A stretch of DNA of 64,000 nt from Craspedostauros australis. Taxonomy: Eukaryota. A program made the translations under genes and the position numbers. Each line of letters opens with the position of its first letter. The first letter of the stretch is position 1. The notes beneath the pieces were generated by a model that ran no database searches, had not been told where the DNA came from, and saw only the letters and a list, made by a program, of their open reading frames with translations. Of the stretch, positions 43,112 to 64,000 are shown one piece after another. Location: contig JALAGF010000153.1 of assembly GCA_030167865.1 (NCBI GenBank), positions 1 to 64,000 on the forward strand. The letters run 5' to 3'.

Positions 43112-44881
43112 CTATGGAGATTCCCGTTGCCGAGACGGCGACTTGCTAGGTAACGGCGTATCCCAGCAAAAGCCAACCTTGTTCAGCAGCTCGATGCGAC
43201 CGGCCGTGAGCGACGAACCCTGCCCGCTTTTCAGCAACCGGAACTTACGTCGCTGATCCTTCACCCACGTTCCAAGAGAGGGATCGTCGGCGTACTTCGA
43301 TGGAACGTTGCAATGTCCCATTTGAGCCTGATAGGCCACCAGATCGCGGTAGTGCCGCTCCCACGTGATCTCATGAGAATCCCAAACGAAGCCCAAACCT
43401 TCCAGCTTTTGCTGCCGTTCGTCCGTCAAAGTGGACCGTCTCCCATCAATCTTGAGCTTGTACTGGCACCTCTGTCGCTTCATCCAGCGTGCCAACGCCT
43501 TGTCCTGCCTCGTCTCCACTTGGCAATGTCCATACTTTTGCTTGTATTGTGTGAGCTGCTCGAAGCGGGTTGCCCACATATCGGCCTGGTACTTGCGGAA
43601 CTGCACGCCTTGGCGCGATGGTGTCGAGGCGGATCCCGTGGCAGCCGGGACCGATGCCGTCCCAGAGCCCGCCGACATGTTCGTTGCGACCGACGTGCTC
43701 GAGAGGTTGGACGTGTTGGACTTGGAGGATGCGACGGAGGATAACGAAGGCGGGAGGACGAGCTTTTGCTTGTTGGCGGGTGGTGAGTGCGATGCGACTG
43801 GAGCGCTGTTTATCGGTGCCTGCAAGAAGTCCCTCCTCTGAGACAGATCATTGTGCGGCATCGCATACTCGGGATCCACCGAGCTTGAGAACCGAGGCGA
43901 TGATGTCGGCGCAAAGGTGGCCGGTGCTTGTGGGAACATGATTGAGTCCTCGCTGCTCCCTGATATGTGCTGCAGGTCTTGTTGCATCGCCTTGCGGTCT
44001 TCCTCTTCTCGGTATTGCTGTTGCTGTTGGATCGTTGGATACGCGGGTGCGTTGCGATGTATCAATTGGAATGGGTCTGGATATGAGTTGGCTGGCTGAT
44101 GCGTGTCGCCGAGCAACAACCCCATGCGGCTCGGCGATAGAAGTCGCACCCCTTCATCGTCAAGTTGCTCCCTCTGTGCAGGATGTCGCGCAACGCCGTG
44201 CACATGCCGCATCGATCCCGAATCAAAGCCCGCAAAACCGGCTGGGGCCGTGCTTGCAAGAATTGATCGCTGGCCTTGCACTTGTGGAGTCGACGATGAC
44301 GGCTCTGGTTGCGGCTGCAATTGATGCTGTATATTCTGAAAGAAGACTGAATCCAAAAAAGAAGCGACTTCCGTTCTCGTGCGAGACGCCTGGAATGTGT
44401 CAGTTGGCAGCACCTTGTTCACTACGCGGAGAGGTGCCCCACGCAGGGGCATGGGCTCATGGGGTGGCGTGTTCAGCTGTGGTTGCAGCTGCGGCTGTTG
44501 TTGCGAATGGTGCTGTTGATAGGGTTGGCCTGGTGGAAGCTTTTGAAATCGTTGGAATTGCTGGTGCTGGAACGGCTCGCCTTGATTCAATGCACCAGGA
44601 AGCAGCAGTTGGTCCATCGAGTCACTTTCACGATTCATGTGAATAGCCTCGTGTCTGTGGTGTGCGCCGCCGCTGCTGCCACTGCTGCTGCTGATGGCCA
44701 TACCGGAACCGTCACCGTGACGGGTACTGCGCCCGCCGCCGCGGCGGCTCCTTCTCTTGACTCCTCTCTCATCGCTGGCCTTTTCGCCTGTGGCGCTGCC
44801 GTCCTGAAAGGAGACATATCGCTGCCGCCCTTCTTCTTCTTCGTCCCCGTCCGCCTTGTTATGCTTGAATGTGTTGTGCAT
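43112..44881 (-). CDS. Low-complexity protein with two C-terminal helicase-associated (HA) domains, putative DNA-binding regulator (589 aa)
   Basis: Two repeats of W..R/H...L..Y....GHC.V...L..W...QR...LT..R...L..LGF.WD; Q/S/P-rich N-terminus; first in-frame ATG at 44881. Confidence 0.85.
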   Translation of the reverse strand: MHNTFKHNKADGDEEEEGRQRYVSFQDGSATGEKASDERGVKRRSRRGGGRSTRHGDGSGMAISSSSGSSGGAHHRHEAIHMNRESDSMDQLLLPGALNQGEPFQHQQFQRFQKLPPGQPYQQHHSQQQPQLQPQLNTPPHEPMPLRGAPLRVVNKVLPTDTFQASRTRTEVASFLDSVFFQNIQHQLQPQPEPSSSTPQVQGQRSILASTAPAGFAGFDSGSMRHVHGVARHPAQREQLDDEGVRLLSPSRMGLLLGDTHQPANSYPDPFQLIHRNAPAYPTIQQQQQYREEEDRKAMQQDLQHISGSSEDSIMFPQAPATFAPTSSPRFSSSVDPEYAMPHNDLSQRRDFLQAPINSAPVASHSPPANKQKLVLPPSLSSVASSKSNTSNLSSTSVATNMSAGSGTASVPAATGSASTPSRQGVQFRKYQADMWATRFEQLTQYKQKYGHCQVETRQDKALARWMKRQRCQYKLKIDGRRSTLTDERQQKLEGLGFVWDSHEITWERHYRDLVAYQAQMGHCNVPSKYADDPSLGTWVKDQRRKFRLLKSGQGSSLTAGRIELLNKVGFCWDTPLPSKSPSRQRESP

Positions 44882-47220
44882 TGGTGCCTTCCCGTCAACC
44901 AAATGATGCGAAAATGGCCAGCTATTTGGGGAGAGCGGCGGCGGCGCGGATGGTTGTGGTGACGCTGATGACAGCAACGACAACGTCAACGATGACGGTG
45001 GTGGCAATGAGAACCGTGTCCGACTGCGTCACGGGGCAATGATGGGCAGAAGAAAGACGCGGAGGAGTGATTCTCTTTCTGCAGATTTCGTGAGCCTTGA
45101 CGGTTGGTGAGATGGATGCGGTCGATGCAGTTGATGTGGTTGATGTAGTTGGTGTGATTGATGCAATTGACGCACTTGATGCTTGTCGTTTCTTCGAATT
45201 GTGTGGTTGGTTGTCGGCCTCAACAAACAGACGAATTGGCAACAGCAATACGATGCCTCGTCGCAAGGATGTCGACGATGTTCCTCCCGCTGTGGGTAGT
45301 CTTGTGAATGCTGACGCTGAGGTTGCCTTCTCCTTCGACGTGGTCGTGCTGAATCGATGTGTCGTGTCGTGCCGCGTTGTGTCGTGTTTTGGTGGTGTTG
45401 AATTGCTGTGTGAAAAAGAAGCGGATTGTGTTCTGTTCCAAACACCTGCGGTGCAAAGAGAGGTTCTGGTCCTGGTGGTGGTCTCAGTATTAGTGGTGGT
45501 CTCAGTGGTGTTTCTGCTTTGCTATTCGTGAAAAGAATGAGGCTTCGATGATGGCGATGGTCTTCAGCGACCCATCAGAGACTGTAGTGTTCGCCCAACT
45601 GCCTCGTCGCTTGTGACACTATGTATTCAATGATTGCACGATCACCCAATCGGTTGGGTGTGCCGAAGTGATGCTGGGTGATTGAAATGATTGATAATAG
45701 CAAAGTCGAGCCAATTGAGGGCTGCAGGTGCGGAGGCGAATGAATCTTGCCAACGAGGAGCGGAGGCACGCTCTCGTGAGACCTCCCTGATGTTGCAGCG
45801 ATGTTCCCCTTGTCCACCTCTGCTGTGGGTGGTGCTGAGGTGTTGCCGCAGTGACGGTTGGTCATGGAGCAGAATGAATGTGTGTTTTTGTGGCCACGCC
45901 AGACAAGGGCGAAGGAGCCAAAAACCAGGGTGGTTGCCACCACTCGAAGTTCGCAGAAATTGAAGCGTCGACATGCCACAACAGAACATGTTCGCTTTCT
46001 CCCTTCCCACTTGTACGACTCGACCTTCATCGGAAGGGCATGCACCACCTCAGAATGTGTGACATTCTGCGTTTTCTGTACTTAGTGGATAAACTGTGAT
46101 GGGGTTCTCTCGTCCCATTCCATGCATCTTGAATCGAACGCTGACAGAGCCAAGACGAAGGCAGGTGTTACTCCACGACGGATATTTATGTGTCATAGTT
46201 CTACCAATATCTTCCACCGAGAATGCAGAAGCTCCTCCCACCTACGAGCAACAGATACCACTGAGTACAAGACAGAATTCCGTTTAACAAGAGGAGAGTC
46301 TTTCCTGCTGTTGGCGTTGGTAGCTGCAGATTCAGCCGCGGCCACGATCCTGTACCTTCGCGCAGAACGACCCCGCCTCTCTCTCTCGCTCGCCCTGCAG
46401 AGCACCGTGTGCTGCTCTGCTCTATTTCAATCTTCCTCGTATGCAGTAGGATGACTTTAAGTTTACTCGCTGCTTTGCTTCTCTGCAAGTACGTACTCCG
46501 CACACCACGCACATGAAGACGTGGACACAGAAACAGGCAAGTTTCCTGGCTGAATCAGTTCCTTTCCTCCTTGGTTGGATCGTTGTCGCGGCATTTCTGT
46601 CCTGTTTGATCGCGGAAGGGACCGAGCACACTAAAAATGCTATCTTGGTGCAATATATAATGCGCAATGTTCTCGCATGGTAGGCGGACACATAGGACGA
46701 GCAGAGTAGATCAAGTACAAGAGAATCGGAATGGGGGCGGGCCACCAATCGTGTGGTCGGCTGGCTGCCGGCGAGTTTGCTTCTTTTCCGCTCTGCTTGC
46801 TGAATCAAACGCGCGAAGACTATGGACCGCTATGCCCGCTTCGAGCCGTGCAGACGCAACGCATTGCCACCACCACAGCATGTGCGAGCACTGGTATAGG
46901 CTGCAGTCTCGAGCCCGTGTGCCAAACCACAACGCGCAAACCCAGAAATTGCAACATGGTGATTCTGCAGAACACTCTTTTGTCCGAGGAATGGTCATGC
47001 ACTTATCAATACGTGAACTGGACACGGAAATTTGTGTTCTCTTCGATGGTTCTCCTTGTAAAACGGCGATTCAACAAGTCACAAGTGACGGTGTGAACCT
47101 GAGCCACTTTTTTAGGCTTTCCGTAACAGTTGTGCATTCCGTTGACACTTCGCCGTAAGCACCACGTGCACCACCAGGAGAGTAGGGCACGCATTCACAG
47201 AAGTACGAATACTCCGTTCG

Positions 47221-47593
47221 GAAACACCATCCCAATAATAGTGCTTGTGAGCGCATTCGCGCCGATGTGGTTATTGTTTTTCTGCCCCTTGTGGTCCAAG
47301 TAGCTACCAACCTCACGGTGTGAACATCAGCAACGACGATGCCAAGCTTCGAAATGTCTTTTTTGTTCCTCGCTGTGATGCGACGCTGTGCCATCATCAA
47401 CAAGCGGTACAACCATGGATGCTGACCGGTAGCATCCCACAGCATACCATGCGCACATGCATGCACTCTCGTCATGCCACGATGGAATCCGCGTAGGGTC
47501 GAAGAGGCTTGCGCTGTGTGCCTCTCCGCCACCATGGCAAAGAATGTAAGCCGATGGTGTTGCTGCTGGCGATGCTGCTGCTCGTGGTCGCAC
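47221..47593 (-). pseudogene. Possible decayed DUF6824-family fragment
   Basis: VPLVDDG...HFEAWHRR followed by a stop, then RGRK and NNNHIGAN in adjacent frames, resembling the GRG...H.GN motif with a frameshift. By eye only. Confidence 0.2.
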
Positions 47594-49625
47594 GCACTAC
47601 TGGTATTCTAGATACAGCTGCACGTGTGCCTGTGGGGGAAGGCGTAACGCGAGGGCAATTGGCGAAAGTTGCCGATCAACGAGTGCCTCCACCGCCTCCA
47701 CGCCCCTTGCAGACCCTTTCCGAAACACCTTATCATACCTTGGAGCACCTTCTCCATTCTCCTCGTCCCTTTGGGGGGAGGGTTGCGCACTGGCAGCAAC
47801 AAGCCAAACAATCGTTCCCCCCTGGTTTCGGCGATTGTCTGTGCCCATGAGCTTGCTGGTTGCGGGTTGCTCCATGGTTGCCGCAGACTGTTTTATCGCT
47901 TTCGCCAAGGCAGACACAGTGCGGTGTGCTAGTCACGGCGCAGAAACAGCAATGGCGCCCAAGGAATGCGTCCTTCTGTATTTAAATGGTGTGGACCCGT
48001 CGCGCAAGGACTATGGTTGTGGAGTTGCCCTCGGCATGTTCGTTGCCTGGAGGACAGAAATCGGCAGAAAACGGGATACTTCACTCTGCGCTCCGCCCTA
48101 CATTCTACTTTGGTTACGCCGTGTCTTTACTCCGCCTTCTCGTGCCTGACGATGTGACAAAGTTAAATGGGCGCGTGACGATACCTCCGGCGGTTCCATC
48201 GTCGATGCCCTTGTTCGTTTGTGCCTTCCGCTTCCGTGTCTGATTGTGCTTTGTTTGTGTGTTTCTGATTTATCCATTGCGAAGCTTCCACCCCGCGCCC
48301 CCACAATTTGTATGCGCTGTTTGAGCGCAATACTCGTGCTTGTACGTATAAGACGAGCCTGTGTTGGGTGTCCGATACGCAACACGAAACATTGGCGGAA
48401 GTACCTGGCTTGTGCTCTTGGCGACTCTCTGCGCGGCACGGGCATGTGCTCGTGCGCGACGACGTTCCAATTGCAACGTCCGGCAATACAACCTTCTCCA
48501 TCGTATTCTGTTCTGCCCAACGCCCTTCGTGTCAGGCAAACAACTTGCTTTTTCGGGTACTGCGGTGGTGGATGGCCAAGGGTGGCGCCGATACGCGTCG
48601 TTCACATCCTGACAGGACCACGTAGTGTATTGATAGCACTGCAAGTTTATGCTGTTTGTGACGTTGCGGGCGGCCACGTGAAGCAGCAAAGCGAGCCACG
48701 CGACTCGCTTCGTCTTTTCTTTCTCTCGCCATCCGCCTTGCCTGATACATGGACGTGCCAAGACCTTACGGATCCTTTCTCACGGACACAGAAAGACAGA
48801 GTGAAGCGCCATCGAGGTCGCATTCCCCAGCTTGCATTCTTTTGCCCTGCACACGGCGCAGTTCCGGGCAGGAATGTGAAGAGCAGGATCATCTTCGGTT
48901 TCAGTTTGTCCCTGTGCCAATGTGCGAATGCATGTCTGCATGAAGTTGATGACGAACGTTCCAACATGGATCAGAGAGTACGAAGGCAGCGAAGTCCGCG
49001 CTTCTCTCACCTTTCTTGCGGCTCTCCACCATCACAAGCTGCCTGTGATGACAGACCTCCACGCCGACGGAATGTCATGGAAAACCTGTCGGAGGTTGTT
49101 CGGGAATTGTCAACTCCCTGGACTTCCCCGTTCGTGTTTTTCGCTCTCCTGGGAGAAATATCCACAGTGCCGGTGTGATCTGACTGTGTGCAGAATACTA
49201 ATACGGGAATCGGCTGCTGTGAATGCCATTCGGTTCACACCAGGCGGAGAAATGTCATTCTCCACACACCAAGTGACGCACGACCTGCTTCTCGACCTCG
49301 TCATGACAGAGGTACAAGTGGTAAGATGCACAAACACCTCTTCTGACAGAATTTGGCGCCAAAACACTTCTGGAATACTGAAGTAGTGTTAGTGTTTTGG
49401 AAAACTGAGAAGCGAAACATTGATCGACGCAGTGCCTTCACCGAAATTACATGAACTCCTTTTGATCATTGCACCGCAGCCAGCCGACCCCTCGATCCAT
49501 GACAGAAACGCATTCACGAAGCACACATCGGGAGAGGTGAGCCATCAATCACCCACGATAACGATCACTTCCTCTGTCACTCAAGCCTTTCTACGTACTT
49601 GTCCTCGTAGAGTACTCAGTTCACC

Positions 49626-51860
49626 ATGAAGGCAGTTTCCAAGGCCGACTGGAGGCCATCAACTGCAGATGGAACCAACGCGGATGAGGCACCGAAGCCA
49701 CCACCTGATTGGGACCGCTGTCATGCGTACAACGCGAGGAAGCGACGGTTCTGTCGCCAACGTCCTCTGCAACTGCGCGTGGCATTGGATTCCAGCAGCG
49801 CCAAAGTCGCATTCTGCTACTGCGGCAACCACCAGCACCTTGCGTTGCAGCAGTCGACGTCGCAACCAAACAGCGATGCCGTCGCCGCAACATCAGCAAA
49901 TGGGTTGCTGAGAAAACGGGTACCATGCCCCATCGATCCATCTCACAGCATCTACGAGGACAAGGTGAAGAAGCACATCAAGAACTGTCCCTTTCTGACC
50001 AAGCAGCGTGAGCAGGAGGCCAAGGATTATTACGTCAAGGGGATGAACCTCGGTGGATACGGCGTGAATATGTGCTACGAGATCACCGATGCGAGCAGCA
50101 CAACAAACACGGCTGAAGCATTGGGAGAGCAGGAAGCATTGCAGTGGGCGCAGCGAGTGGCATTGCGCGTGCTCCAGGTTCATCAACGAATGTTTGCGAA
50201 TGGCGGCGATGCCGTTGGCAATGGCATTGATGCGCCCATCGATCCAACATGCATCACATTCCAAGATATACTCAGCGCGATTAAGATGGAAGACTATTCC
50301 AACATCAGCCTGAACACTTCGCACAGCCCCGACAGCAGCAACAGTGATGCTGATGCGACCATGTCACCAGCGACGGCAGCAACAGCAGCAACAGCAACGA
50401 CGTTAATGCAGGGGCTGGAGCACGATATGGAGTTCTACCGTGTCAGATCAGGCGGTGCACGACATGTTCCGCAACTCGCAAGCCTGGCCGGTCATTTTCA
50501 GCACGTGAGAACGCAATTGCATCGCAGTGGCAACGCCCGTGACGACGATGCACCAACGCCCAAATCAGAATCTATCCGTGCTTCATCACAGCCGCCGCTG
50601 CTTTTGTTGGAAATGGGCGCAGGTCGCGGAATCTTTGGCATCACGGCTGCGGGAATGGCAGCGAAGGACTCCATGGTGGAGTCCCACGACGTTGCAACCC
50701 CCCGAAGCGATCTCAATCAATCGCAGCAGGGCGCAACACAGCACCCCGCGAATGTGCATTTGGCAATGGTGGAGCGCGCAGGGACGCGAGCAAAAGCTGA
50801 AACCATCCTGCGCAACGTGAAGAAGCGCATCGACAAAGCCCAAGGCAACGGGGGTCAAAGACAACAAAAGATGGAGGATAGAATGCAACTGCACCCAACG
50901 CAAAATAACCATCCGACATGCATACGTTTGGACAGAGTCGGATGGTCACGCATCTCCTGCGACATTGCACACGTCAACTTGGAAACGGTTCTCGACAAGC
51001 ACCGAACGGAAACAAATGCCGCCCAAAATCCAAGCGCGAAGCCGACGGTCATCGTCATTGCCAAGCACTTGTGCGGAGTGGGCACCGATCTGGCATTGAA
51101 GGCCATGCAACCCATTGCAACGCACGTCGATGGCTGCGTCTTGGCAACCTGCTGCCACGGGGTATGCAACTGGAATGATTACGTTGGACGCGACTACCTC
51201 CGATCTATCATGGTCGTAACGTCAACTTCAGAAACGGCATCAGCAAATACAAAAACAACAACAGCAGCAGCGCCATCGCTGTCGTCATTTGGTGCGAGGG
51301 AGTTTGACCTGCTCCGAAAGTGGAGCGCGGGCACTGTTGTTGTGGATGCGTCATCCGATGAGAATGGTCAACAACATCCGGGTCCCGAAGAAGCGGATTC
51401 AGAGCATCCGAATGCAGTTTCGCAGTTGGAGGAGAGCGGCGATCCAACAACAGGGCAGAACATGTACACCGGCGTATCAAACATCGTCAAGACGTTGGAT
51501 CTCAAATGCGGAGTCCAAGGCTTGGGTCGAGCCTGCCAGAGGTTGATTGACTACGGTCGACAGCAGTACATGGAGCACGTGCTCTTTGCATCATCAGGAA
51601 GCATTGCTGGCAAGCCAATGATGATGGATGGACTGGAGCAACATGAACTGCAACCCCAACAGAAACGGCAAGAACAGGCGGCGGCGGTGACGGCAGAGGA
51701 GGTACCGCATGATGATGACATGCAACCCACGACGAAACGACCGCGGAAGCAGGATGCGCGGGAAGGAAAGCGCAGTGGCGCCAAGCTGTCCTACTATGTT
51801 CCTGCATCTGTGACTCCGCAGAATGCAGTTCTCGTGGGTGTGCGAAGGCCGTCCACTTGA
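49626..51860 (+). CDS. TRM13: tRNA position-4 2'-O-methyltransferase TRM13 (744 aa)
   Basis: CCCH finger CHAYNARKRRFC...YCGNH; CHHC finger RVPCPIDPSHSIYEDKVKKHIKNC; LEMGAGRG, IAKHLCGVGTDL, ATCCHGVC, VTPQNAVL. Confidence 0.93.
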   Translation: MKAVSKADWRPSTADGTNADEAPKPPPDWDRCHAYNARKRRFCRQRPLQLRVALDSSSAKVAFCYCGNHQHLALQQSTSQPNSDAVAATSANGLLRKRVPCPIDPSHSIYEDKVKKHIKNCPFLTKQREQEAKDYYVKGMNLGGYGVNMCYEITDASSTTNTAEALGEQEALQWAQRVALRVLQVHQRMFANGGDAVGNGIDAPIDPTCITFQDILSAIKMEDYSNISLNTSHSPDSSNSDADATMSPATAATAATATTLMQGLEHDMEFYRVRSGGARHVPQLASLAGHFQHVRTQLHRSGNARDDDAPTPKSESIRASSQPPLLLLEMGAGRGIFGITAAGMAAKDSMVESHDVATPRSDLNQSQQGATQHPANVHLAMVERAGTRAKAETILRNVKKRIDKAQGNGGQRQQKMEDRMQLHPTQNNHPTCIRLDRVGWSRISCDIAHVNLETVLDKHRTETNAAQNPSAKPTVIVIAKHLCGVGTDLALKAMQPIATHVDGCVLATCCHGVCNWNDYVGRDYLRSIMVVTSTSETASANTKTTTAAAPSLSSFGAREFDLLRKWSAGTVVVDASSDENGQQHPGPEEADSEHPNAVSQLEESGDPTTGQNMYTGVSNIVKTLDLKCGVQGLGRACQRLIDYGRQQYMEHVLFASSGSIAGKPMMMDGLEQHELQPQQKRQEQAAAVTAEEVPHDDDMQPTTKRPRKQDAREGKRSGAKLSYYVPASVTPQNAVLVGVRRPST

Positions 51861-51958
51861 AGTTACGAAGATGGCAATCTCCCACTATAGAATAACACTC
51901 TGGAGTACTCATCGTGAATGGGCATCATTAGGAGTACGCATACTCTGTAAACCCCTCT

Positions 51959-52930
51959 CTAAACACCAAAATCCAGGCCCGCTTGCACCAGCTCCCTTCG
52001 TTTTTCGTCGCTCATGGTGGGATCCAGCAGGTACCGCCACATGTCGTAGCTGTAGCTGCTGCGGACGGTCTGCGTGCACACCGGGTGCGTTCTGGACGTG
52101 AAGACGCCATCCATGTGCCCCTTGTAGGTGAACGACGATCGGAACAGACCCGGTATCCACGCGGACTGGATGAGCCGATCACGCAGCTCCTGCTTCGTGC
52201 GCGGCCTCGTCAGCGTTGACGTTCCGTACAGCGCGGTGGATATCGTGGATGCCAACGTTTCCGTGCTGATGTCGATTGGGGCATTCGTGCTGGATTGCTT
52301 TTCGTCGCCCGTCGCAAACTCGGATGACGACGGTTCCAACGAGGTCGTGATGATGGCGATCTTCGATATCCAGCTCGGGAGTTCGTCATCCTCGTCATGG
52401 TAGACGATCGGCTCGAATATCCCCTCGACGTTGGTGGCGTTCGGTAGTTCCATGTCGTTCACAAGCAATCGATCGACCAGGATGTAGAACAGCTCCATGA
52501 GCGTGTAGGTGCCGTTCATGTAGCGTGGAATGCAATGGTCCGCCAACGCCAAGCCGTAATCCTCCGTCCATCCTTGCAACGTTGCAACGAGCACCAAGCA
52601 ACCCGCAGAATTGCAGACGTTGGTCTGATTGAGCAGCTGCGATCGGGGGATGGACTTGAGCTGGCCGTAAATGTGGAAAAGGCCGGCAAATCCGCCGCCG
52701 GGGATGAACAGTGAAGTCGGGACCTCGATCCGTTTCACGTTGCTGCTGTGCGACTTGGACGCCAGCGCAATTGCCACGGCTACAATGACAACAAGGATGA
52801 CCGAACGAAATGGTCTCAGGATGGAAACTCCGGTGCGCAGATCCGTTGGTAGCCCAGCGCCTTCGGCCACTCTCCGCAGATGAGCAGCAGCGCTGCTGCT
52901 TTCGTCTGGTTTCTGATGTGGCTGCCGCAT
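51959..52930 (-). CDS. Membrane-anchored patatin-like phospholipase domain protein (323 aa)
   Basis: N-terminal TM VILVVIVAVAIALA; oxyanion loop PGGGFAG; nucleophile elbow CNSAG; QSAWIP; DGV. Start chosen at ATG 52930. Confidence 0.7.
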   Translation of the reverse strand: MRQPHQKPDESSSAAAHLRRVAEGAGLPTDLRTGVSILRPFRSVILVVIVAVAIALASKSHSSNVKRIEVPTSLFIPGGGFAGLFHIYGQLKSIPRSQLLNQTNVCNSAGCLVLVATLQGWTEDYGLALADHCIPRYMNGTYTLMELFYILVDRLLVNDMELPNATNVEGIFEPIVYHDEDDELPSWISKIAIITTSLEPSSSEFATGDEKQSSTNAPIDISTETLASTISTALYGTSTLTRPRTKQELRDRLIQSAWIPGLFRSSFTYKGHMDGVFTSRTHPVCTQTVRSSYSYDMWRYLLDPTMSDEKRRELVQAGLDFGV

Positions 52931-53672
52931 GCTGCGCTGTTCGTATAGTGTAGGTATGATCCAAGCGGAGATGAATCGACAGTTGTCAGAGTGAACGAGA
53001 ATGTATTTGGATGGAAGGAAGGATGCGGAGAGGATTCGGCAGCCATGGGGACCTATGGCACATCGCTGCTTCCATCCTTCGATCATTGGCATCTGATTAC
53101 GAGAAACCAAATACGTTTGTTCCACCAAAGCGTGAAAGAATTTCACTTGTTCCAAGAACAAAGATGTCCGAAACAAAAACAGCAATGCCTCCTCGGTCTG
53201 GCGGTCGTTCGTGTATGTTGACTGTCGATGTCCAAACAAGCCAACAAACAGACATTTTGTATGTCTGTTTGAACAATTGTCTGCCTGCTCATATCTGACT
53301 GTTTGAAGCAAACTGCGTTTCTTCAGCACTTGCATCCCAATGATCCGATCTGATCTTGCAGAACTAAGCGGAACCAAGTGGAGCTCGTATGGTGTGTATG
53401 ATACCACACCCGCACTTGCACAACTGAGAAGATAAGGATGCCGTCAATCCAACGTTTGTGTAGAGCTGTCCAAGTAACTGTCTCTGGCATGTTTGAATGG
53501 ACAATCTTCGCCGTGGGACGTATCACTTAGTGACGGGCTATCGAAGCCAACGTGGTCTGTTCAAACTAGGATACGGAGGACACACTGAGGTATACAGAAG
53601 GGAAGTGGGAGTGAATGTACTTGTACTGTGCCTGCCCACCTATTATACATGATAGCGTGAGCCTCTTATCTC

Positions 53673-56282
53673 TCAATTAAATCGTATGCAATGCGTGCAG
53701 AAGCGATCCAGCTGCTGACGCGAATGCGACACCATCATGATGGGCACCGCCCTTTCGATCAACGTCCGTTCCACGATCTTCGCTGTTGATTCGTCCAACG
53801 CGCTCATGCTTTCGTCCAACAGCAACACACGTGGTTGCATTGACAGCGCAATCGCCAAGGACATGCGCTGCGCTTCGCCACCGGACAGCGTAGACCATGG
53901 CTGGTCGAATGTGCCCTCCTCCATGCCCCATTTCGTGATGATATCGATCGGCGATTCTTCAGTGTGGTCTTGATGTGATTGTCCTTGTTTTGATGCAGAT
54001 GGATGCTGTGAAGAGCTGTGGACCATCTTGTTCAGAAGCTGTTGGTGCCGTTTCCAACGACAATGGTGTTGAAACCTTGAGATTTCGTCCATGAGCATCC
54101 TGGGCGTTCCTTCGATGGTTGGTCGATTCTGAGACACGAAGCATACCTTCGTTCGGAACTCGGTATTCGAGAGTTCATGAGAATTCACACCATCCAACTG
54201 AACCCAACCATTCGTGCCGCCAGACTCCTCCAGTCCAACAAGCGTCCGCAGCAGTTGGGACTTTCCAGTTCCGGACTTCCCAACTATCCCAATGCGATCG
54301 CCAGTCTGGCATTGGAAGGATGCTGTTGCGTTAGCTCGATGAATATGAAGATTTTGAGCTTGTAATACTGGAGTGGTGGCAGGTGATGGCGAAGTTATCG
54401 TTGATTTGGCACTATCCTCGTGTTTCTGCAGAGCAAAGGCTTGAAGGGTGGTGGTAGGAGTTGTGCTTGGAAGAGTGTCGCCATCTTCTTCATGCTTGTC
54501 TGCTGCATCGTTGTCACTTACGTTGCTGCTTGACGAAGACGATGTCAACGTGGATGACGATGACGCTGATGGTGCTTGTCCATCGTTCCCTTTCCATTGC
54601 AACAAGCCTGATCTCAGTCTGTCGTTGGGACGATCGATGAGGGCGCCTACAGCTGCCCTGACTACGAGCTGGACTGTCGTGCAGGCAGTTGCTGCGATCA
54701 AGAAGTTGATCATGATTTGGTACGCTGCAGCTTGTCGAGGTGACTGTCCTGCCAAGATCTGCCCTGTCATCATGCCAGGGATGTGGACGATGCCTGTGAC
54801 TGCAAGTCCGTTGATGGTGGGCGTCAACGCTGTGAGGAACGTATCCCGAATGAGAGGCAGCGTGGCCTCACCAGATGATGCCCCACGTGCGAGTCGCAGC
54901 TCGACTTCGTCTTGCCTTGTCGCAAACTGCTTGGTCAGGGTGGAGATACCCAGCGCGGATGCAGACAGCGTGTTGCCAAACAGCATCCCGGCCACAGGGA
55001 TCCACGTTCGGGGCTGGAACCACGGCTCGATCACACCCAGCACCTTCAGGAACATCGCCAGCGACAACACCGTGGTGCCGCCGGCCAACACAGACGAGTA
55101 GATGTGGCGTCGGAGCTTCGGGTAGTCATATTGCACACGCGACAGTGCCTCGCGACTTGCGATACATCCGACCCCGACGATCCATGACAACACGAACAGC
55201 GGGTTGGAAGTTCCCATGATACGTTGCAGCACGACGCTGCCGAGCAACGACACTTGCAACGCGCACCGACTTGCTGACAGCAGCAACGATCGTGCCAGCG
55301 ATGGCAGCCCGGAACTCCACAACGGTAGCACAGCAAGTCCTGTCAGCATCGTGGCAGCCGTGGCGAGGTTGCGGATCCCAAGTGCGTTGACGACGATCGT
55401 ATCACTTGCAACGGACGCTGCTTGGAGCGATGGTTCCACCGTGTTCGTTGCTGATGCTGACATTCGTGATGCGAATGGGGCTGCCCAGGAAGGCTGACAT
55501 CGCATCAGCAAAACGAAGCTCAGCACCAACGCGGATCTCACGATGCGTTCCTTGGTCTTCGACGGTCGTGACGGGCTTGCCGGCAGTGACCTTGCTTCTG
55601 TCTGAAGCCGAAGAAGTCTCAGACATATCCTTCTTGCGCTACGTCGATCCTTGCCATGCGGATAATGATCAGACTTATGACCTGTCGTGTGACTAGATCT
55701 ATGACCACAGCATCTTCTGACATGTGGGACCTTGTTATCCGCACCATCATGACGGCCACGCTTCCGAATCCATTGCGGGAAAGTCCAGGAACATTTTCCC
55801 AGTCTGGAACACTTTCGGGATCTGATAAATATGGATATTGCCTTCCTCTCATGGTTCCTGGTGGGTGTTGGATGGGCTGTTGATGTGATGAAAGGGTGCG
55901 CGTTGGCTTGGAGAGAGTGGTGATCAGGATATGCAGAGGCATACCGCAGGCTTGAGGAACACTGATGAAGTTCCCGACGGTTTGGTTGATGATGTCCACG
56001 CGATTGGTGACTGTTCTTTTTGGACAAAATGGGAAGCGCCGAAGCACCTGGAACAACACTAACTAGTTCCAACCGTTTCGCGATGAGAAGCTGATCCACA
56101 AACAAGGACGCGCATGCGAGTACTCCCACGATCACAATCCATCGAGCCCGCCGCATCTTGATCTGGCGTTGACGCTGTTGAAGGCAACGGCGATTGAGCT
56201 GGTTGTGTTGACGTTGCGGCATCTTGCTCGGTGAAAGGGGTGACGCGTGGAAAGTCGTGGTCGGCAGTGTCATCAGCAGCAT
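53673..56282 (-). CDS. Fusion of a UPF0014 (FetB/YbbM/ALS3-like) permease and an ABC ATPase (FetA/YbbL/STAR1-like); start uncertain (56282 or 56222)
   Basis: One uninterrupted ORF. Permease RCALQVSLLG, WFQPRTWIPVAGMLFGN, VELRLARGAS, ALTPTINGLAVTGIVHIPGMMTGQILAG..P.QAAAYQI; ATPase GKSGTGKS, LSGGEAQR, LLLDESMSALD, VSH. Confidence 0.88.
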   Translation of the reverse strand: MLLMTLPTTTFHASPLSPSKMPQRQHNQLNRRCLQQRQRQIKMRRARWIVIVGVLACASLFVDQLLIAKRLELVSVVPGASALPILSKKNSHQSRGHHQPNRRELHQCSSSLRYASAYPDHHSLQANAHPFITSTAHPTPTRNHERKAISIFIRSRKCSRLGKCSWTFPQWIRKRGRHDGADNKVPHVRRCCGHRSSHTTGHKSDHYPHGKDRRSARRICLRLLRLQTEARSLPASPSRPSKTKERIVRSALVLSFVLLMRCQPSWAAPFASRMSASATNTVEPSLQAASVASDTIVVNALGIRNLATAATMLTGLAVLPLWSSGLPSLARSLLLSASRCALQVSLLGSVVLQRIMGTSNPLFVLSWIVGVGCIASREALSRVQYDYPKLRRHIYSSVLAGGTTVLSLAMFLKVLGVIEPWFQPRTWIPVAGMLFGNTLSASALGISTLTKQFATRQDEVELRLARGASSGEATLPLIRDTFLTALTPTINGLAVTGIVHIPGMMTGQILAGQSPRQAAAYQIMINFLIAATACTTVQLVVRAAVGALIDRPNDRLRSGLLQWKGNDGQAPSASSSSTLTSSSSSSNVSDNDAADKHEEDGDTLPSTTPTTTLQAFALQKHEDSAKSTITSPSPATTPVLQAQNLHIHRANATASFQCQTGDRIGIVGKSGTGKSQLLRTLVGLEESGGTNGWVQLDGVNSHELSNTEFRTKVCFVSQNRPTIEGTPRMLMDEISRFQHHCRWKRHQQLLNKMVHSSSQHPSASKQGQSHQDHTEESPIDIITKWGMEEGTFDQPWSTLSGGEAQRMSLAIALSMQPRVLLLDESMSALDESTAKIVERTLIERAVPIMMVSHSRQQLDRFCTHCIRFN

Positions 56283-57111
56283 GTGGGCTCGCGGAGCGCC
56301 TTCTTGGTGGCAGATGGATGTTTCCGTTGTTTTGTTTCGTTGTGATCTGTGACGTTGTGTTGTCTTGTGCGTGCGGAACACGCTGCAGCGGCGTTCTGGT
56401 GTGCAGAATCGTCGATCGTGGACATCAAGGATACGGCTTCGATCTGAGGATTTCAGGCATATTGCAATGTATACATTTAATATCATTTTAAACAATATTT
56501 GATCAACAACTATGTTTTTACCCCTTTAATCATACTTTCCCATACCCCATCTCATACTCGTGATTCGATGAGAACTGTTGGTGCAACAGAAATTGAAACG
56601 TGGTATTGCTTCAATGTGCTCGCCAACACCGCCGAAATTGTGTGCCAACGAAGAAGTCTGTGGAACAACTTGGTGAAGTGTGGCTCGCTTTGTCTCTCAG
56701 TCACGCTCTGCACAGAGACGCCAACACCGACACGAACAGCAGCACCAACGGCGGCTTCAGCACAACCAATCGCAACAGCAATGCCCTGTGCGAGTAGCAC
56801 GCCATCAGCAGCGACGTCCCCCTCCAACATCGTACAAGCAAGAGCGCACCAGCAACAGTAGCAACACCACCCGACACAGCCGCTGTATAGTACCATCGAG
56901 CAACGAAGAGACCGAAGCACGTTTGCTTTCCGACGAGAGCTGTGCCAGTAGGAGATCATTGCTTTTGAAGCGTTGTTGCTGTTGCTCATCCCTTTGCGAA
57001 GTTGCACAATTGCAGATCATCATTTGCCACTCATAAAACCAGCTCGCGCAGCAAGCTCAGCCACAGTAACGACACCACGAAACAGCACACACAAAAACAT
57101 TCCAGCAAGCC

Positions 57112-60100
57112 ATGAACGATCCAACCAAAGGTGACAACACCGAACAGCTGCCCGAAGTGGCCAAGCCAACCACAGCCAACTTCGATGACAAGACTGACAA
57201 GACTGACAACAATGACAAGGACAAGGACAACAAGAAGGATGACAAAGCTGCGGACGCTGGTCCGATGGCGACCATCTCAGAAGTCTTCAGCTTTGCCACT
57301 CCTCCTGAGAAGATCAAGATCTTTGCTGGGCTGATCTGTGCGTCTGTGTCCGGTATCGTGGTGCCCTGTAAGTGATCAGGGAGTGTCGAAACAGGCAGAA
57401 TCGAGTCCGGTGCAAACGTGAATCGACTGGGCGCACGTTGGTGTTGTTCATTGACGCAGCATTCCAATGGCAGTGACGAGCAGACAACGTGAGAACCTGC
57501 ACAAGTCAGTGTTGTTGCCGAGTATTGTACTCTGCAAGTATACGCACACCTCACAGCTGACAGGGCTGAATACCACATGACACCATCTGACATTGCTTCA
57601 ATCTCCACCATCCTATCCAATGAATCATTCGCTTCCCCAACAACCCAATCCAACATGCATGCATTCATGCACACAGCCATGGCGTTCTTCTTCGCCCGCA
57701 TCTTCGAGGATCTTTCCTCCGACCCGTCATCCTCTGACTTTCTCAAGAACATTCGAACGCTGGCCTTCAGTTTCATGATTCTTGGGGTGGTCATCTTTGC
57801 ATCCATGTCGATGCAGGCCGCCCTGTTGGAAACGGTCGCAGGCGAGATGACCAAGAGGATGCAACGCTCTTGGTTCGAAGCTGTGTTGCGCCAGGACATG
57901 GCGTACTTTGACATCAAGGACGTGTCAGGCACCGCCACCATCATCTCCACGAACGGCAAGAAGTTCAAGAAGTACGTCGAATGTGCGTTTGCGTATTAAG
58001 CCTTGCTTGTGTGCTCATCCCGGTTCGATGGCAAGATCATCGTCAGTTGTCTTGTATCTGTTGACAACTAAACCATGTCCATGTTGTTCATCTCCATGCA
58101 TTCACCCGCAACCCATTTCTTACCAATTCAATCAACCAATCAATCCTCCACATCAACACACCGACACACCAACACAATTCATTTTGCTCGCTCATTCGCT
58201 TGTTGCATCCCATTTGACCATCAGAGGAGTCGGAAGGAAGCTCGGAGAAGGCATCCAATACATCGTCACTTTCTTTGGCGGCATCATCTTTGCTTTCGTC
58301 CAAGCTTGGCGTGTCAGTCTGCTTGTTCTTTGCATCGTGCCATTCATGGCCGTCTGCACTGGATTCCTCCTCAAGGTCAACCAGACTGAGACAACTCGCA
58401 AGAATGCTGGATACGCCAAGGTCGGCGCCATCGTATACACAGCCGTCTCATCCATCCGCACCATCCTCTCTTTGAACGCCGTCGAAGACATCGTGAGCGA
58501 GTTCAAGGACGCGACCCAAAAATCATACGAGGCCTCTTCAAGCTTCGTCGTCTGGGTCGGGCTCGCCAATGGATCTGTCATGGGATCCTTCATCTTGGCC
58601 TACATCCCTGTCACTCTCTACGGATCCTTCGTCCTGTACGACAACGTGAAAGACTCCGGTTGCGACCCATCCGGCGGCGTATCTGATAACTTCACCTGCG
58701 ACCCTGGTGCCGCAGGAGTCTTTGGAGCCCTCATGGGTATCACCTTCGCGGGTGCCGTATTGCCCCAGATCTCATCCACCATTGAGGCGTTCACTGGAGC
58801 ACGAGTTGCCTGCTTCCCTGCTCTGGAGGCCATGAACCGCCAAGTCGGGGCTGATGTAGCAGCATCGAAGCAGGAAATGGACGAGAGCAACAAGTCCACT
58901 TCTCATCAGCGCAGAGGCAGCGTGGCGAAGCTCCCAACCTACGTCATCGACTCTTCATCCGATGAAGGTTTGAAACCAGACAAGGTCGTTGGTGACATCG
59001 AGTTCAAAAATGTTGACTTCGCGTACCCAACACGCGACGAGATCAACGTGTTCGACGGATTCTCTTTGAAGATCGAGGCTGGAACAACGGTGGCTCTTGT
59101 CGGGCCCAGGTACGTGGCAGTTTCCTAACCGTGCTGCTTTTCTCGTCGTCACTGTTGCCATCGCAACAACATGACTACCTCCACGTTCGCAATGCGCCAT
59201 CATCACTCCCACACGTACTCACTGGCCTCGTTTCTGATCCGCTTGTTGCGCAATTCAATGTCTCGCTCAAACCGCTCTTCTTGGAACTTGTCAACCTTCG
59301 CCTTCTTTTTCATTCAATTGTTCACTTGTTCGTGCAACAATCAAACCAAACCAAACCAAACCAACGAACTCACGCAAACATAACAGTGGAAGGTAAGTGT
59401 GAATCGAATACGAAGCTGCGCACGCGCCTGTCTGTGGAATCCATCCCCTTTGGCAACTTGTCTGCTCCACGGCTGCTCCTTCCAATCTCACCAAAAAAGT
59501 TTTTGCTCATTTGCCCTTCCTACTCGTCCCTGTTTCCGTCTACTTTGCGAATTGGAAATGGACAGTGGAAAGTCGACGACGGTCCAGCTGATTGAGCGGT
59601 TCTACGACCCCAAGGCTGGTTCCATCACCCTCGATGGCAACGAACTCACCCAACTCAACGTCAAATGGCTCCGCCAACACATGGGGCTCGTAAGCCAGGA
59701 GCCAAAGCTGTTCGCCACAACCATCAAGGAGAACATTTCTGTCGGCATGCCAAATGCAACCATGGCCGACATCGAAGATGCCGCGCGCAAGGCCAATGCG
59801 CACGACTTCATCGTCAGCTTCCCAGATGGGTATGAAACTCAAGTTGGAGACCAGGGAGCGCAGCTCTCCGGAGGTAAGTCAGCCAACCATCCGAAAGTAG
59901 TGTCCTGCTCTGCTTCCACTCGCTTCAATACGGCTCGTTCGCCATGCTCAACTGCACAGTATACACTTGGTTGGCATCTGCCACTTCTTGGAATTCCTCA
60001 CACACGTACCATACATGCACACGCACATGGACACGCACATGGACACGCACATGAACACGCATACGTCTCCTCCACCTCTTCTCCTCCATGTCCCATCTTT

Positions 60101-63100
60101 GCATCGTTGTATTGATGCATCAAATGAACGCACCATACGCGCCCGTACAGGCCAAAAGCAACGTATCGCCATTGCCCGCATCTTGATCAAAAAGCCAAAA
60201 ATTGTCATTCTTGACGAGGCCACAAGGTAAGCCCAATCACGCTCCGCCATGTTCATACAATACCTGCTGCATGAATACGCTGGAAGTCTGACCTGTTGTT
60301 TACCGTACACAACATTGTCTGCTTGCACTCTCTCGCTTGTTCCACCGTGGCACGACATCACGATCATGCAAAACTCATCCTTCCTCCCTCCCTACTTCCC
60401 TCTCTTCCTCTCTGCCCCCTTCAACCACAGTGCCCTGGACAGCGAATCCGAGGCCGTAGTCCAAGAGGCGCTCGATAAGCTGATGGAAGAAGGCAATCAG
60501 ACTGTGGTCGTCATCGCTCACCGGCTGTCAACCATTCGAAATGCTGACATGATCGTCGTTGTCAACGAAGGAAAAGTCGCGGAGACCGGTACGCACAGCG
60601 AACTGATCGAGAAGCAAGGAAAGTACTACGACCTCGTCGAGGCGCAGAAGGGTAACAAGGGCAAGGATGATGAATCTTCGTCACAGAAGACCGATAGCAC
60701 GCACACCCGCACGAGCAGCACGCTGGATGGTGTCGAGAATGAAGATGGAGATGATGCCATCGAAGTGAGCGCTGTGCTTGACGAGAAGTTGGAAACACCC
60801 ACCGACAGTCCGCTGCTTCGTTTTCACGGCGTTCACTTTTCATACCCATCGCGCCCGGACAACAAGATCTTCCGCGGTTTGAACCTCGATGTCTACGAAG
60901 GAGAGACGCTCGCTATCGTCGGACCAAGGTAAGCGGAACCAATGCAATGGTTCGTAGCACCATTCGGCACAGTATGAGTGCATGCATGGCTACATGCAAG
61001 TGGTCACGCACAGAGATGAAATCGCATTCCTGCCCCCGAACTTGCTCCCATTTGGGCCACGCGGACTTTGTCAACAAGCGAGACGATGATGTGCCACGTT
61101 CTCACTTTCCTCTCGCCTCGCGATTTTCCATCACAACTCGCACACACCATATTTCGCAACCACTCATCTCCGTTTCACAACACAGTGGCCAAGGAAAGTC
61201 CACCATCATCCAGCTCTGTGAGAGCTTCTACCGCCCAAGCAAGGGCGCTGTGGAGTACTGCGGCGTCGACATGGCCGACCTGAACGTCAAGTGGCTTCGC
61301 CAGCAGTTTGGACTTGTTAGTCAGGAACCCGTCCTTTTCGATGTTAGCATTGAAGAGAACATCCGCTTTGGGTCCAAAGACGTTTCCGAACAAGACGTCA
61401 TCAAGGCCGCCAAAGAAGCCAACGCGCACGATTTCATCATGTCCTTCCCCGACGGATACAATACCGCGGCAGGAGGGGCCGGCTCTTCACAGATTTCAGG
61501 CGGCCAGAAGCAACGTATTGCCATTGCGCGAGGTGAGTGAAAAAGATTCGGTGGACCATCGTTGCGAGTAAATGAAACTCCCTCTCGTGTATTCGATTTC
61601 GTTCACCTGTGCAGTCGTACAGTCGCCTGTTTTTCTTTGTTCTCTCATACTTACCGCCGGCCTCCCTGTGCCGCTGCTGCAACTTGCAAATTCCCGACGT
61701 CCTTAATCTCGCAGCTCTCATCAAGAAACCCAAGATCCTACTGCTGGATGAAGCCACATCGGCGCTCGACAGCGAATCCGAGAAGGTTGTGCAGGCTGCA
61801 CTAGACAGCATCATGTCCAGTGCTGGCCGTACCACTATTGTGATCGCCCATCGCCTCTCGACCATCCGCGATGCCGATCGCATCGCCGTCATCGACAACG
61901 GCAAGGTCCGCGAGATCGGGACGCACGATGAACTGATGATGAAGCCAAACGGCCGCTACAAGCGTCTTCAAGACTTGCAGAATCTCGATCAGGATGTCAA
62001 GAAATCCAAGAAGAAAAAGGACGATGACGATGATGATGCGGACGAAGAGCATGCCGATGACAAGGACGATGGCACCGACGAGAAGGAATCCACTGAGGAA
62101 GACAAGAAGAACGAACAGCTCCGAGCGAAACGGGCACGAAGCTTCGCCAACCAGGACGTCATGTTCTTTGTGATTGGAAGTGTCGGTGCGGTCTTCGCCG
62201 GGTTGCTCTTTCCAGGATGGGGTGTAAGTTTCTGAGCGGCAATACAATGCGATGCCATGCCATGCTACTAATATGGCATGCTTCATCGTTGCATGATGTT
62301 GTTGGTGGAAGTTTCCTTGCAACTGAGCTGCTGATGGTGGTCGCGACTTCGTGGTGTTTGCCCATTGGGGGAGAATCTTGTTGTGTGCGTCCATCCTGAA
62401 CCATTCGCTCGTATCAACATGTGAATACTGACAAACATCGTTTCCCTGTGTTCTTGCCCCTCGCTCCTTCAGCTCGTCTTTGCGTACATGGTGGAGTTGC
62501 TCTACACACCAATCGAACGATGCGACGAGTCTGCTGGTATCTTCCCTGACGGAAACATCACAGACTGCCAGGAATACTTCGACGACGAAGCTGATGATAT
62601 GAAGGAATTGTCCATCAATGTGTTCATCGGGGTCATTGGAGTCATCTGTTCGTCGCTTTTTGGCAACGTCCTCCTCTTTTATGGATTCGGAACAGCGACG
62701 GAGCGCATGAACAAGCGCGTCCGCGACAGCACATTCGAAAGCCTCGTGCGTCAAGAGGTCTCGTGGTTCGATGTCCGCCCCGTGGGAGTCATCACCTCCC
62801 AGATCTCCGATGACGCTGCCATGATCCATTCCTTTTCCGGTGAACCAATCCGCACCTTGGTGATGAACTGCGCAAGCGTGCTGGTCGGGCTGGTCTTCGC
62901 CTTTTACTACATGTGGTACGTATCGAACACTATGCTGTGTCACGTTGGTCGACGCTGTGATGTTGTGTGTGGCCTTGCGATCTACGGCGCTGCCCTCCCC
63001 ATTCCGAATGCGGGGCTTGTAATGATTTTTGTCGCTGAAAGGGCGGTGGGATGCTCAGGCGTCGACTTGCTCGCAGTTCCATTCAAACCCCATGCTCCCA

Positions 63101-63759
63101 CAATGACGGCGCACTCGCTTACATCGAACATACTCGTATCGTTCCACTCCATCGTTTTCTCACGCCCAATCGTTTCGGAACGCTATCCTCACACGCTCCT
63201 TCCCCTGACACTAACGAACAGGCCATTCGCATTGATGACCCTCGCCATCTTGCCGTTCATGGCATTTGGAGCGGAGGCAGAGATGGCCATGTACCTTGGA
63301 GAAGACGAGGGTGACGAAAGCGCATTCGATGAGAATTCCAGCGGAGGCATCGTCGTCGAAGCCTTGATGAATATTCGGACGGTCGCATCACTCGTCGTTG
63401 AGAAGGACCGTCATGAGCACTACGCGACGGCGTTGGAACATGAGCTCCCCAATGAATTCGCCAAGAACTTCGTGAAGGGAAGCACCGCCGGCTTGGGTCA
63501 GTTCGTCCAGATGTGGGGAATGGCCTTGATGTTCTGGTGGGGCGGATGGCTGCTCAACAACTACAGCGGCACCTTCGAGCTCCGCGACTTCCTCATCTCC
63601 ATGTTCACGTTCCTTTTCTCTCTGTCCGGTCTGAGCTTTGCCATGCAGGGCATCACCGACCGCGTCAAGGCGAACAAGGCGGCCGAGCGCATCTTCGGGT
63701 TGATCGACCGAGAGAGTTTGATCGACCCACTCAGTGACGAAGGCAAGAAGCTCAATTGA
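57112..63759 (+). CDS. ABCB (P-glycoprotein/MDR-like) transporter with TMD-NBD-NBD-TMD order, about 1386 aa; exons 57112-57367, 57677-57971, 58225-59109, 59387-59392, 59566-59873, 60151-60226, 60431-60928, 61186-61532, 61715-62223, 62473-62915, 63222-63759
   Basis: TMD1 ([17 protein letters not shown]); NBD1 ([37 protein letters not shown]); NBD2 ([26 protein letters not shown]); TMD2 ([16 protein letters not shown]). The exon sum is 4161 nt and stays in frame. Confidence 0.92.
59387..59392 (+). other. 6-nt micro-exon TGGAAG within the Walker A motif of ABCB NBD1
   Basis: Flanked by AACAG (acceptor) and GTAAGT (donor); its inclusion restores GPSGSGKST. Confidence 0.85.
60013..60064. repeat. 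Intronic 12-bp tandem repeat (ACACGCACATGG-like, about 4 degenerate units)
   Basis: Visible directly in the ABCB intron 59874-60150. Confidence 0.8.
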
Positions 63760-64000
63760 ATTGGAGCAATCGTAGTGCAATAACACAATAGTAACATGAC
63801 AAGTGATGTATGTACTGAGCAGGACGGCATCAACCCAATGGTAGATGGCCATGCGAAATCCATTGTCTAAACACTCGCAGTTGATGATGGTGCGCAATGT
63901 GAAGCGCGAGACACAGAAGTGTGCACGGTTGTGCGAAGAACTTGGTTCAGTGATCAGCTCCTGTTGTTTTGTCCAGAGAAGTTATGTACATGGTGATGTT

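Follow-up and report, generated by a model that had tools for sequence, protein, structure and literature searches.

The six bases TGGAAG at 59387-59392 very probably form a genuine internal coding exon in a diatom gene for an ABCB-like transporter, one that would be spliced in constitutively or nearly so. The gene lies on the + strand of the window, by which we mean the whole stretch of 64,000 nucleotides of the Craspedostauros australis contig JALAGF010000153.1 that was analysed. The first-pass annotation had claimed that this exon completes the Walker A motif of NBD1, and the claim is strongly supported, on comparison and statistics, by the loops of homologues, a profile score, shuffled sequences and the spliced gene model.

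The transporter gene and its exons

The gene model was built from the closest homologue, P0001, using tblastn and reading of the junctions. P0001 is a 1397-aa frame on a 4485-base contig and is therefore transcript-like. With the micro-exon included, the 11-exon model is open for 1387 aa and shows 75.8% identity to P0001 over 1361 aligned positions. Of the model's boundaries the start codon, placed at the first ATG of the first open frame, is the least certain. The gene and its exons are as follows.

57112..63759, + strand: 11-exon ABC transporter gene (tblastn with P0001 as query, junction reading, spliced model)
57112-57367, + strand: exon 1 (11-exon model)
57677-57971, + strand: exon 2 (11-exon model)
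58225-59109, + strand: exon 3, end of TMD1 and start of NBD1 (ABC_membrane at exon residues 2-136, Pfam)
59387-59392, + strand: exon 4, the putative micro-exon TGGAAG (sequence, homology, statistics)
59566-59873, + strand: exon 5, core of NBD1 including the Q-loop and the beginning of the signature, ...QLSGG (ABC_tran profile positions 23-111, Pfam)
60151-60226, + strand: exon 6 (11-exon model)
60431-60928, + strand: exon 7 (11-exon model)
61186-61532, + strand: exon 8 (11-exon model)
61715-62223, + strand: exon 9 (11-exon model)
62473-62915, + strand: exon 10 (11-exon model)
63222-63759, + strand: exon 11 (11-exon model)

Among the matches listed, the closest relatives of the gene product are diatom proteins named by their sources as ABCB/MDR-type transporters, and the relatives include proteins from Cylindrotheca, Nitzschia, Seminavis, Fragilariopsis and Phaeodactylum. 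This marks the window as nuclear DNA of a diatom. No gene model, protein or transcript from C. australis was found in the protein collection. The best identities found in it were 73% for the longer proteins and 77% for exon 5, and the near-length proteins reached 69% at best, or 61% at full-length coverage. In the comparison set as a whole the closest homologue is ~76% identical, and the relatives used for the micro-exon comparison are ~55-80% identical.

Contigs of a public run (X1), whose RNA nature is a guess, were placed on positions 44001-64000 and cover parts of the gene, with no contig on 58675-60675. GT..AG joints in these contigs, at 62223/62473 and about 62914-62915/63221-63222, confirm introns 9 (62224-62472) and 10 (62916-63221). 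In its 3' part, at least, the gene is expressed.

Pfam searches identified ABC_membrane (PF00664) and ABC_tran (PF00005) domains in single exons of the gene as well as in P0001; along the exons the sequence of domains is ABC_membrane, ABC_tran, ABC_tran, ABC_membrane. Beyond its loop NBD1 is intact, with the Q-loop (VSQEP), the signature, a Walker B motif that retains its Glu (IVILDEAT) and the H-loop region (VIAHRLSTI). The Walker A pattern GxxxxGK[ST] is contiguous after intron 7 in NBD2, and in NBD1 it is present only when the micro-exon is included.

The resulting domain order, TMD1-NBD1-NBD2-TMD2, is unlike the TMD-NBD-TMD-NBD order of the canonical ABCB full transporter. The two P-loops lie 244-304 residues apart in all 77 homologues of at least 1200 aa (77/77), and the second P-loop is followed by a median of 613 residues. 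The string TMD-NBD-NBD-TMD was not found in the literature searched.

Anatomy of the putative micro-exon

Exon 3 ends at 59109 (...GGGCCCAG), where the coding sequence ...TVALVGP is followed by AG, the first two bases of a Ser codon, and then by gtacgt. TGGAAG is immediately preceded by aacag and immediately followed by gtaagt. Exon 5 begins at 59566 (ggacag/TGGAAAGTCG, the slash marking the splice site here and below) and reads T + GGA AAG TCG. The six bases supply the T of the Ser codon, the Gly codon GGA and the AG of a second Ser codon, which turns GPS-GKST into GPSGSGKST; AG from exon 3, TGGAAG, and T from exon 5 together encode Ser-Gly-Ser. When 59109 is joined directly to 59566 the translation is GPSGKST. 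On translation, the layout proposed by the first-pass annotation, namely an exon end at 59109, aacag/TGGAAG/gtaagt, an exon start at 59566, and GPSGSGKST on inclusion versus GPSGKST on skipping, proved to be exactly as claimed.

Reading through past 59109 leads to a stop after ...GPRYVAVS (frame 57851..59128), and reading through past 59392 gives S-G-R-stop. Since stops are met within a few codons past either donor, the micro-exon is not part of a longer exon. The introns of the two P-loops and one further element are listed here.

59110..59386, + strand: intron 3, 277 bases, phase 2 in the first P-loop Ser codon (cag/GTACGT...TAACAG/tgg)
59393..59565, + strand: intron 4, 173 bases, phase 2 in the second Ser codon (aag/GTAAGT...GGACAG/tgg)
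59559..59565, + strand: TGGAcAG, an imperfect copy of the micro-exon that ends intron 4 directly before exon 5 (read from sequence)
60929..61185, + strand: intron 7, 257 bases, the paralogous P-loop intron of NBD2 (aag/GTAAGC...ACACAG/tgg)

Indirect evidence that the six bases are used

The homologues agree on the length of the loop. At NBD1 the nine-residue form, G-x-[ST]-G-x-G-K-[ST], was found in 120 of the 120 homologues listed (of 544 matches), and the seven-residue form in 0 of the same 120. P0001 itself reads GPSGSGKST at this position, and only with six bases added between 59109 and 59566 does the window have a counterpart to its residues 477-479; the stretch around its NBD2 P-loop matches the NBD2 of the window exactly. 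Scored against a profile built from 119 homologues, the inclusion form obtained 257.1 bits and aligned free of gaps, and the skipped form, which aligned with two residues of the loop missing, obtained 245.1 bits. The ABC_tran profile of Pfam is entered at position 23 by exon 5 and at position 21 by the equivalent exon of NBD2. Because the other motifs of NBD1 are intact, a dead P-loop is unlikely. From these comparisons we infer that the six bases are included in the mRNA; their inclusion is probably constitutive.

The splice signals point in the same direction. All ten introns of the gene have GT[AG][AC]G[TC] donors and CAG acceptors, and in seven of the ten the acceptor is ACAG. The flanks of the micro-exon fit this pattern, with ACAG before it and AAG/GTAAGT, the best possible donor, after it. 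The ten introns span 173-309 bases, those next to the micro-exon being 277 and 173 bases long, and the single 456-base intron that skipping would create would exceed the longest of them by about half.

Chance occurrence of such a segment was estimated from the same 456-base interval. Two AG-N6-GT sites are present in it, only one of which encodes Y-GG-NNN. Among 200,000 mononucleotide shuffles of the interval, AG-YGGNNN-GT appeared in 1.56%, and the same site with CAG and GT[AG][AC]G[TC] flanks in 0.0115% (P = 1.15e-4). A scan of both strands of the 64-kb window for CAG-N6-GTRMGY returned three matches. The micro-exon is the sole instance on the + strand; the other two are antisense and lie inside coding exons of the same gene.

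Intron 3 occupies an old, shared position

An intron at the same site is found elsewhere in the gene. Intron 7 interrupts NBD2 at the identical codon position and phase (GGA CCA AG/gtaagc ... acacag/T GGC CAA GGA AAG), and the loop after this intron reads GPSGQGKST without any micro-exon. A distant metagenome relative (L032) has an 85-base intron at the same position in its NBD2 (GGACCAAG/gtaagt...tttag/TGGCGGAGGCAAG), and the NBD2 of another (L033) also has an intron at the intron-3 site. The metagenome scan returned 35 loci, at most 55% identical to the gene product, and none of the 35 has an intron at this site in NBD1; L002, L019/L020 and L010/L011 have introns elsewhere within the loop or close to it.

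Shorter proteins of relatives, which are mostly frames called on genomic contigs, were also informative. We sorted 120 of them by the tail that follows the ...TVALVG motif. In 34 of the 120 the motif is followed by G-x-R and a stop or a short tail, which implies the intron-3 position, since this is the read-through signature of AG/GTAA or AG/GTAC there, as in the window. The loop is in one piece in 43/120. In 12/120 the reading is GxSGS and then V, as would be expected of genes that lack intron 3 and have a phase-0 intron lying one base further downstream than intron 4, and a further 8/120 point to two other intron sites in the loop. The remainder consists of other forms (5/120) and proteins without the motif (18/120). 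Taken together, NBD2, the metagenome relative and the 34 tails indicate that intron 3 is old and widespread. As judged from these frames, the codons of the P-loop are rich in intron sites throughout this transporter family.

Intron 4 and the probable origin of the micro-exon

Conservation in orthologues had been proposed as a check on the micro-exon, and here the outcome was unfavourable: intron 3 is shared, but none of the relatives compared showed intron 4 or the micro-exon. The downstream comparison was made on reading frames. There are 28 diatom-type downstream frames that begin with non-homologous residues followed by SGxGKS, 22 of NBD1 type and 6 of NBD2 type as assigned by best match to full-length homologues. 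The 22 NBD1-type frames imply a single intron in the relatives. A start like that of the window, with junk followed by SGKST, occurred in 0 of the 120 matches listed; in two of the matches listed the junk leads into GKST, in keeping with the phase-0 intron class. Pairing upstream with downstream frames by equal size of the source contig, which is an indirect assignment, gave 10 pairs. Four of them are informative about NBD1, each reading GPR-stop upstream and SGxGKST downstream. Among the uninformative pairs, two downstream frames are of NBD2 type, one spans NBD2 and three belong to other classes. Because the relatives compared have the single-intron state, support for the micro-exon cannot draw on conservation.

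Intron 4, and the micro-exon with it, is probably a lineage-specific gain. In the ancestral gene a single intron would have preceded an exon that began with T-GGN-NNN-GGN-AAG, the arrangement seen in NBD2 and the relatives, and the gain of intron 4 would have severed the first six bases of that exon to leave the micro-exon. As for the inferred mode of gain, the TGGAcAG at the end of intron 4 is possibly a remnant of a target-site duplication. This is suggestive but weak, as only the TGG is unexplained by the ACAG acceptor, with a chance of about 1/64. An insertion that duplicated TGGAAG would be spliceable at once, and its splicing would restore the old mRNA. A blastn search (E < 0.01) found no copies of intron 4 elsewhere in the 64-kb window, and no similarity was found among the ten introns of the gene or between them and the rest of the window.

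Predicted splicing and alternative explanations

Given introns of 170-310 bases, splice sites in this gene would be paired across introns (intron definition), and the two short introns flanking the micro-exon would be removed sequentially. At the micro-exon the acceptor AG and the region paired with U1 are three bases apart, so that both flanking introns could hardly be engaged at once. Whichever intron is removed first, the six bases would join an exon of normal size, and the remaining site would then be an ordinary one, either the perfect AAG/GTAAGT donor or an ACAG acceptor. This course of splicing is the most likely one. Inclusion is the expected default, because transcription reaches the proximal acceptor before the distal one and the donor is perfect; given the three-base spacing, some level of skipping is mechanistically plausible. 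The same sequential, partly post-transcriptional removal of introns has been proposed for plant micro-exons (PMC8831610).

The first-pass annotation had also suggested that skipping of the six bases could act as a splicing switch. It was correct that skipping keeps the frame and deletes two residues of the P-loop; the use of skipping as a switch found no support. With its Walker A loop two residues shorter, the site should no longer bind phosphate properly. A regulated, alternative micro-exon would mean that both isoforms are made, that NBD1 of the skipped form is unable to bind ATP properly and that the ratio of the two forms tunes or silences transport. We consider this very improbable, and give the same low probability to the related view of a facultative exon that arose recently by intron gain, with both mRNAs made and skipping yielding a full-length transporter whose first site is blind to ATP. 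The skipped isoform, being in frame and adding no stop, would escape nonsense-mediated decay, and, since TGGAA follows both acceptors, either of them could be joined to the donor at 59110. Very short exons are, moreover, inherently prone to being skipped (PMC8831610). Against these points, the strongest possible donor, AAG/GTAAGT, combined with a consensus acceptor is the signature of constitutive micro-exons in the same source, according to which the variant usually met with outside animals is a retained intron and not a skipped exon (PMC8831610). The proximal acceptor is also the first to be transcribed, and an arrangement that is not conserved in the relatives compared argues against an established regulatory device.

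Constitutive inclusion, which we prefer, also has to be set against the view that the six bases are not used. In that case 59109 would be spliced to 59566 and the NBD1 P-loop would be shortened and non-functional, as in a degenerate site or a decaying copy. Some ABC transporters do carry one degenerate nucleotide-binding site, which provides a precedent, and no X1 contig shows inclusion, there being none on 58675-60675. Nevertheless, we regard this as very unlikely. The other motifs of NBD1 are intact, the open frame keeps its 75.8% identity to the closest homologue, and the shortened loop has no example in the 120 homologues listed. A perfectly flanked, correctly coding segment would have had a chance of only ~1e-4 of lying in the interval, and a 456-base intron would be an outlier in this gene.

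Least credible, and hardly to be entertained, is a supply of the missing residues by RNA-level repair or by a non-canonical splice, for example through an acceptor placed six bases before 59566. A loop of the correct length (GPRDSGKST) would likewise result if 59560-59565 were used, but the intron would be GT...AT, unlike all ten introns of the gene, R-D stands at those positions in 0 of the 120 homologues listed, and the next AG before 59566, at 59498-59499, would add a long insert foreign to the family. This candidate acceptor (GT..AT, GPRDSGKST) was rejected as non-canonical and unlike any homologue listed.

Implications for annotation

An annotation that joins 59109 to 59566, or that stops there, would yield either a split gene or a transporter whose ATP site is crippled. 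It is plausible that gene predictors would miss the six-base exon, as the first-pass annotation expected, and read aligners may hide it as well, because the near copy TGGAcAG lies directly before exon 5; the six bases could be placed on 59559-59565 with a single-base deletion and a spurious GT..AT intron, or be soft-clipped. Missed micro-exons are documented for plant gene annotation (PMC8831610). In the literature searched, supplements aside, we found no paper on diatom micro-exons and none on a micro-exon in a P-loop or in an ABC transporter. If constitutive inclusion and a recent gain of intron 4 are both correct, the locus would show the birth of a micro-exon, in which a second intron arose only a few bases away from an old and widely shared intron, within the protein's most conserved motif. 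No long-standing question is opened by it unless skipping turns out to be regulated.

Comparison with known systems

Within the gene and its relatives, intron 3 corresponds to intron 7 of NBD2, to the NBD2 introns of the metagenome relatives (L032 and L033) and to the NBD1 introns of relatives in its position and phase (G-P followed by the AG of Ser) and in its donor type, AG/GTAAG. In NBD2 and in the single-intron relatives the downstream exon retains T-GGN-NNN-GGN-AAG whole, whereas in the NBD1 of the window a second intron cuts it after six bases.

Introners are insertion elements that bring one splice site with them and create the other from a target-site duplication. Intron 4 resembles a gain of this kind in that it starts with GTAAGT right after TGGAAG and ends with the near copy TGGAcAG. 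Unlike an introner gain, it has no second copy in the window, and most of the short repeat can be put down to the acceptor consensus.

Animal neuronal micro-exons are 3-27 bases long and are controlled by SRRM4-type factors. The diatom micro-exon is like them in being very short and in frame and in changing a site of the protein without destroying the frame. The animal exons are, however, conserved, have weak or special upstream signals and have been shown to be alternative, whereas the diatom micro-exon has signals of consensus strength and is not conserved in the relatives compared. The switch idea is modelled on exons of this animal type.

With coding micro-exons taken as internal exons of at most 15 bases, the six bases described here have canonical flanks, keep the frame and restore residues required by homology; conservation of the exon together with both of its introns was not found in the orthologues compared. 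The nearest parallels are the constitutive 9-base micro-exons of plants, described for the AP2 domain (VYLG) and for glycoside hydrolase family 32 (PMC8831610). Unlike these, the diatom exon has six bases, is apparently lineage-specific and is here predicted from sequence. In common with the plant AP2 and GH32 exons as presented there, it is internal and coding, far below 15 bases, in frame and bounded by canonical splice sites. It also encodes part of an essential conserved motif, as the plant exons do, and is of the kind that annotators easily lose, leaving the motif damaged (PMC8831610). The putative micro-exon of the C. australis transporter belongs to a known kind of annotation trap and does not represent a new mechanism.

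Intron positions and repeats

Four of the ten introns of the ABCB-like transporter gene interrupt an AGT serine codon in phase 2 (AG/gt...cag/T), as read from the junctions of the spliced model:

59110, intron 3, AGT (Ser), phase 2
59393, intron 4, AGT (Ser), phase 2
60227, intron 6, AGT (Ser), phase 2
60929, intron 7, AGT (Ser), phase 2

Introns 3 and 7 interrupt the equivalent P-loop codon in NBD1 and NBD2, respectively. Intron 4 is bracketed by an imperfect direct repeat, with TGGAAG (59387-59392, the micro-exon) on one side and TGGAcAG (59559-59565), the final seven bases of the intron, on the other. Judged from sequence, this repeat may be what is left of a target-site duplication; RNA reads are likely to be mis-aligned because of it. 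Two short tandem repeats also lie within introns:

59334-59372, (CAAAC)n, intron 3, shortly 5' of the micro-exon acceptor
60020-60050, repeated cacgcacatgga units, intron 5

The first of these was treated as a repeat and skipped when X1, a single public run taken as RNA by guess, was aligned to the window. One X1 contig (record 6, window 62887-63250, depth 175) crosses intron 10 unspliced, and the spliced joint 62914/63221 is present alongside it in the same run at depth 154. The unspliced contig comes either from transcripts that retain the intron or from DNA present in the sequenced material.

Neighbouring gene and metagenome relatives

A second coding region adjoins the transporter:

53673-56525, minus strand, long open frame, membrane region then ABC ATPase domain (GIVGKSGTGKSQ ... 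LSGGEAQRMSLAIAL)

This frame is, on its predicted product, a second and unrelated ABC-type gene, and is partly covered by X1 contigs. Among the metagenome relatives of the transporter, the translation of locus L014 (3937-3990) gives an NBD1 loop of GPSRSGKSR, and its near-identical neighbours L013, L015 and L017 carry GPSGSGKST at NBD1; L014 may be a decaying copy.

Domain order

Pfam assignments on the exons of the transporter (57112-63759), compared with the domains of its closest homologue, P0001, gave the order TMD1-NBD1-NBD2-TMD2, with the type IV membrane domain (PF00664) C-terminal to the second NBD. Among the matches listed, all 77 homologues of at least 1200 aa have 244-304 residues between their two P-loops, and the median length beyond the second is 613 residues. 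Within the collection of papers searched, none contained the string 'TMD-NBD-NBD-TMD'. The transporter differs from the usual ABCB order, TMD-NBD-TMD-NBD.
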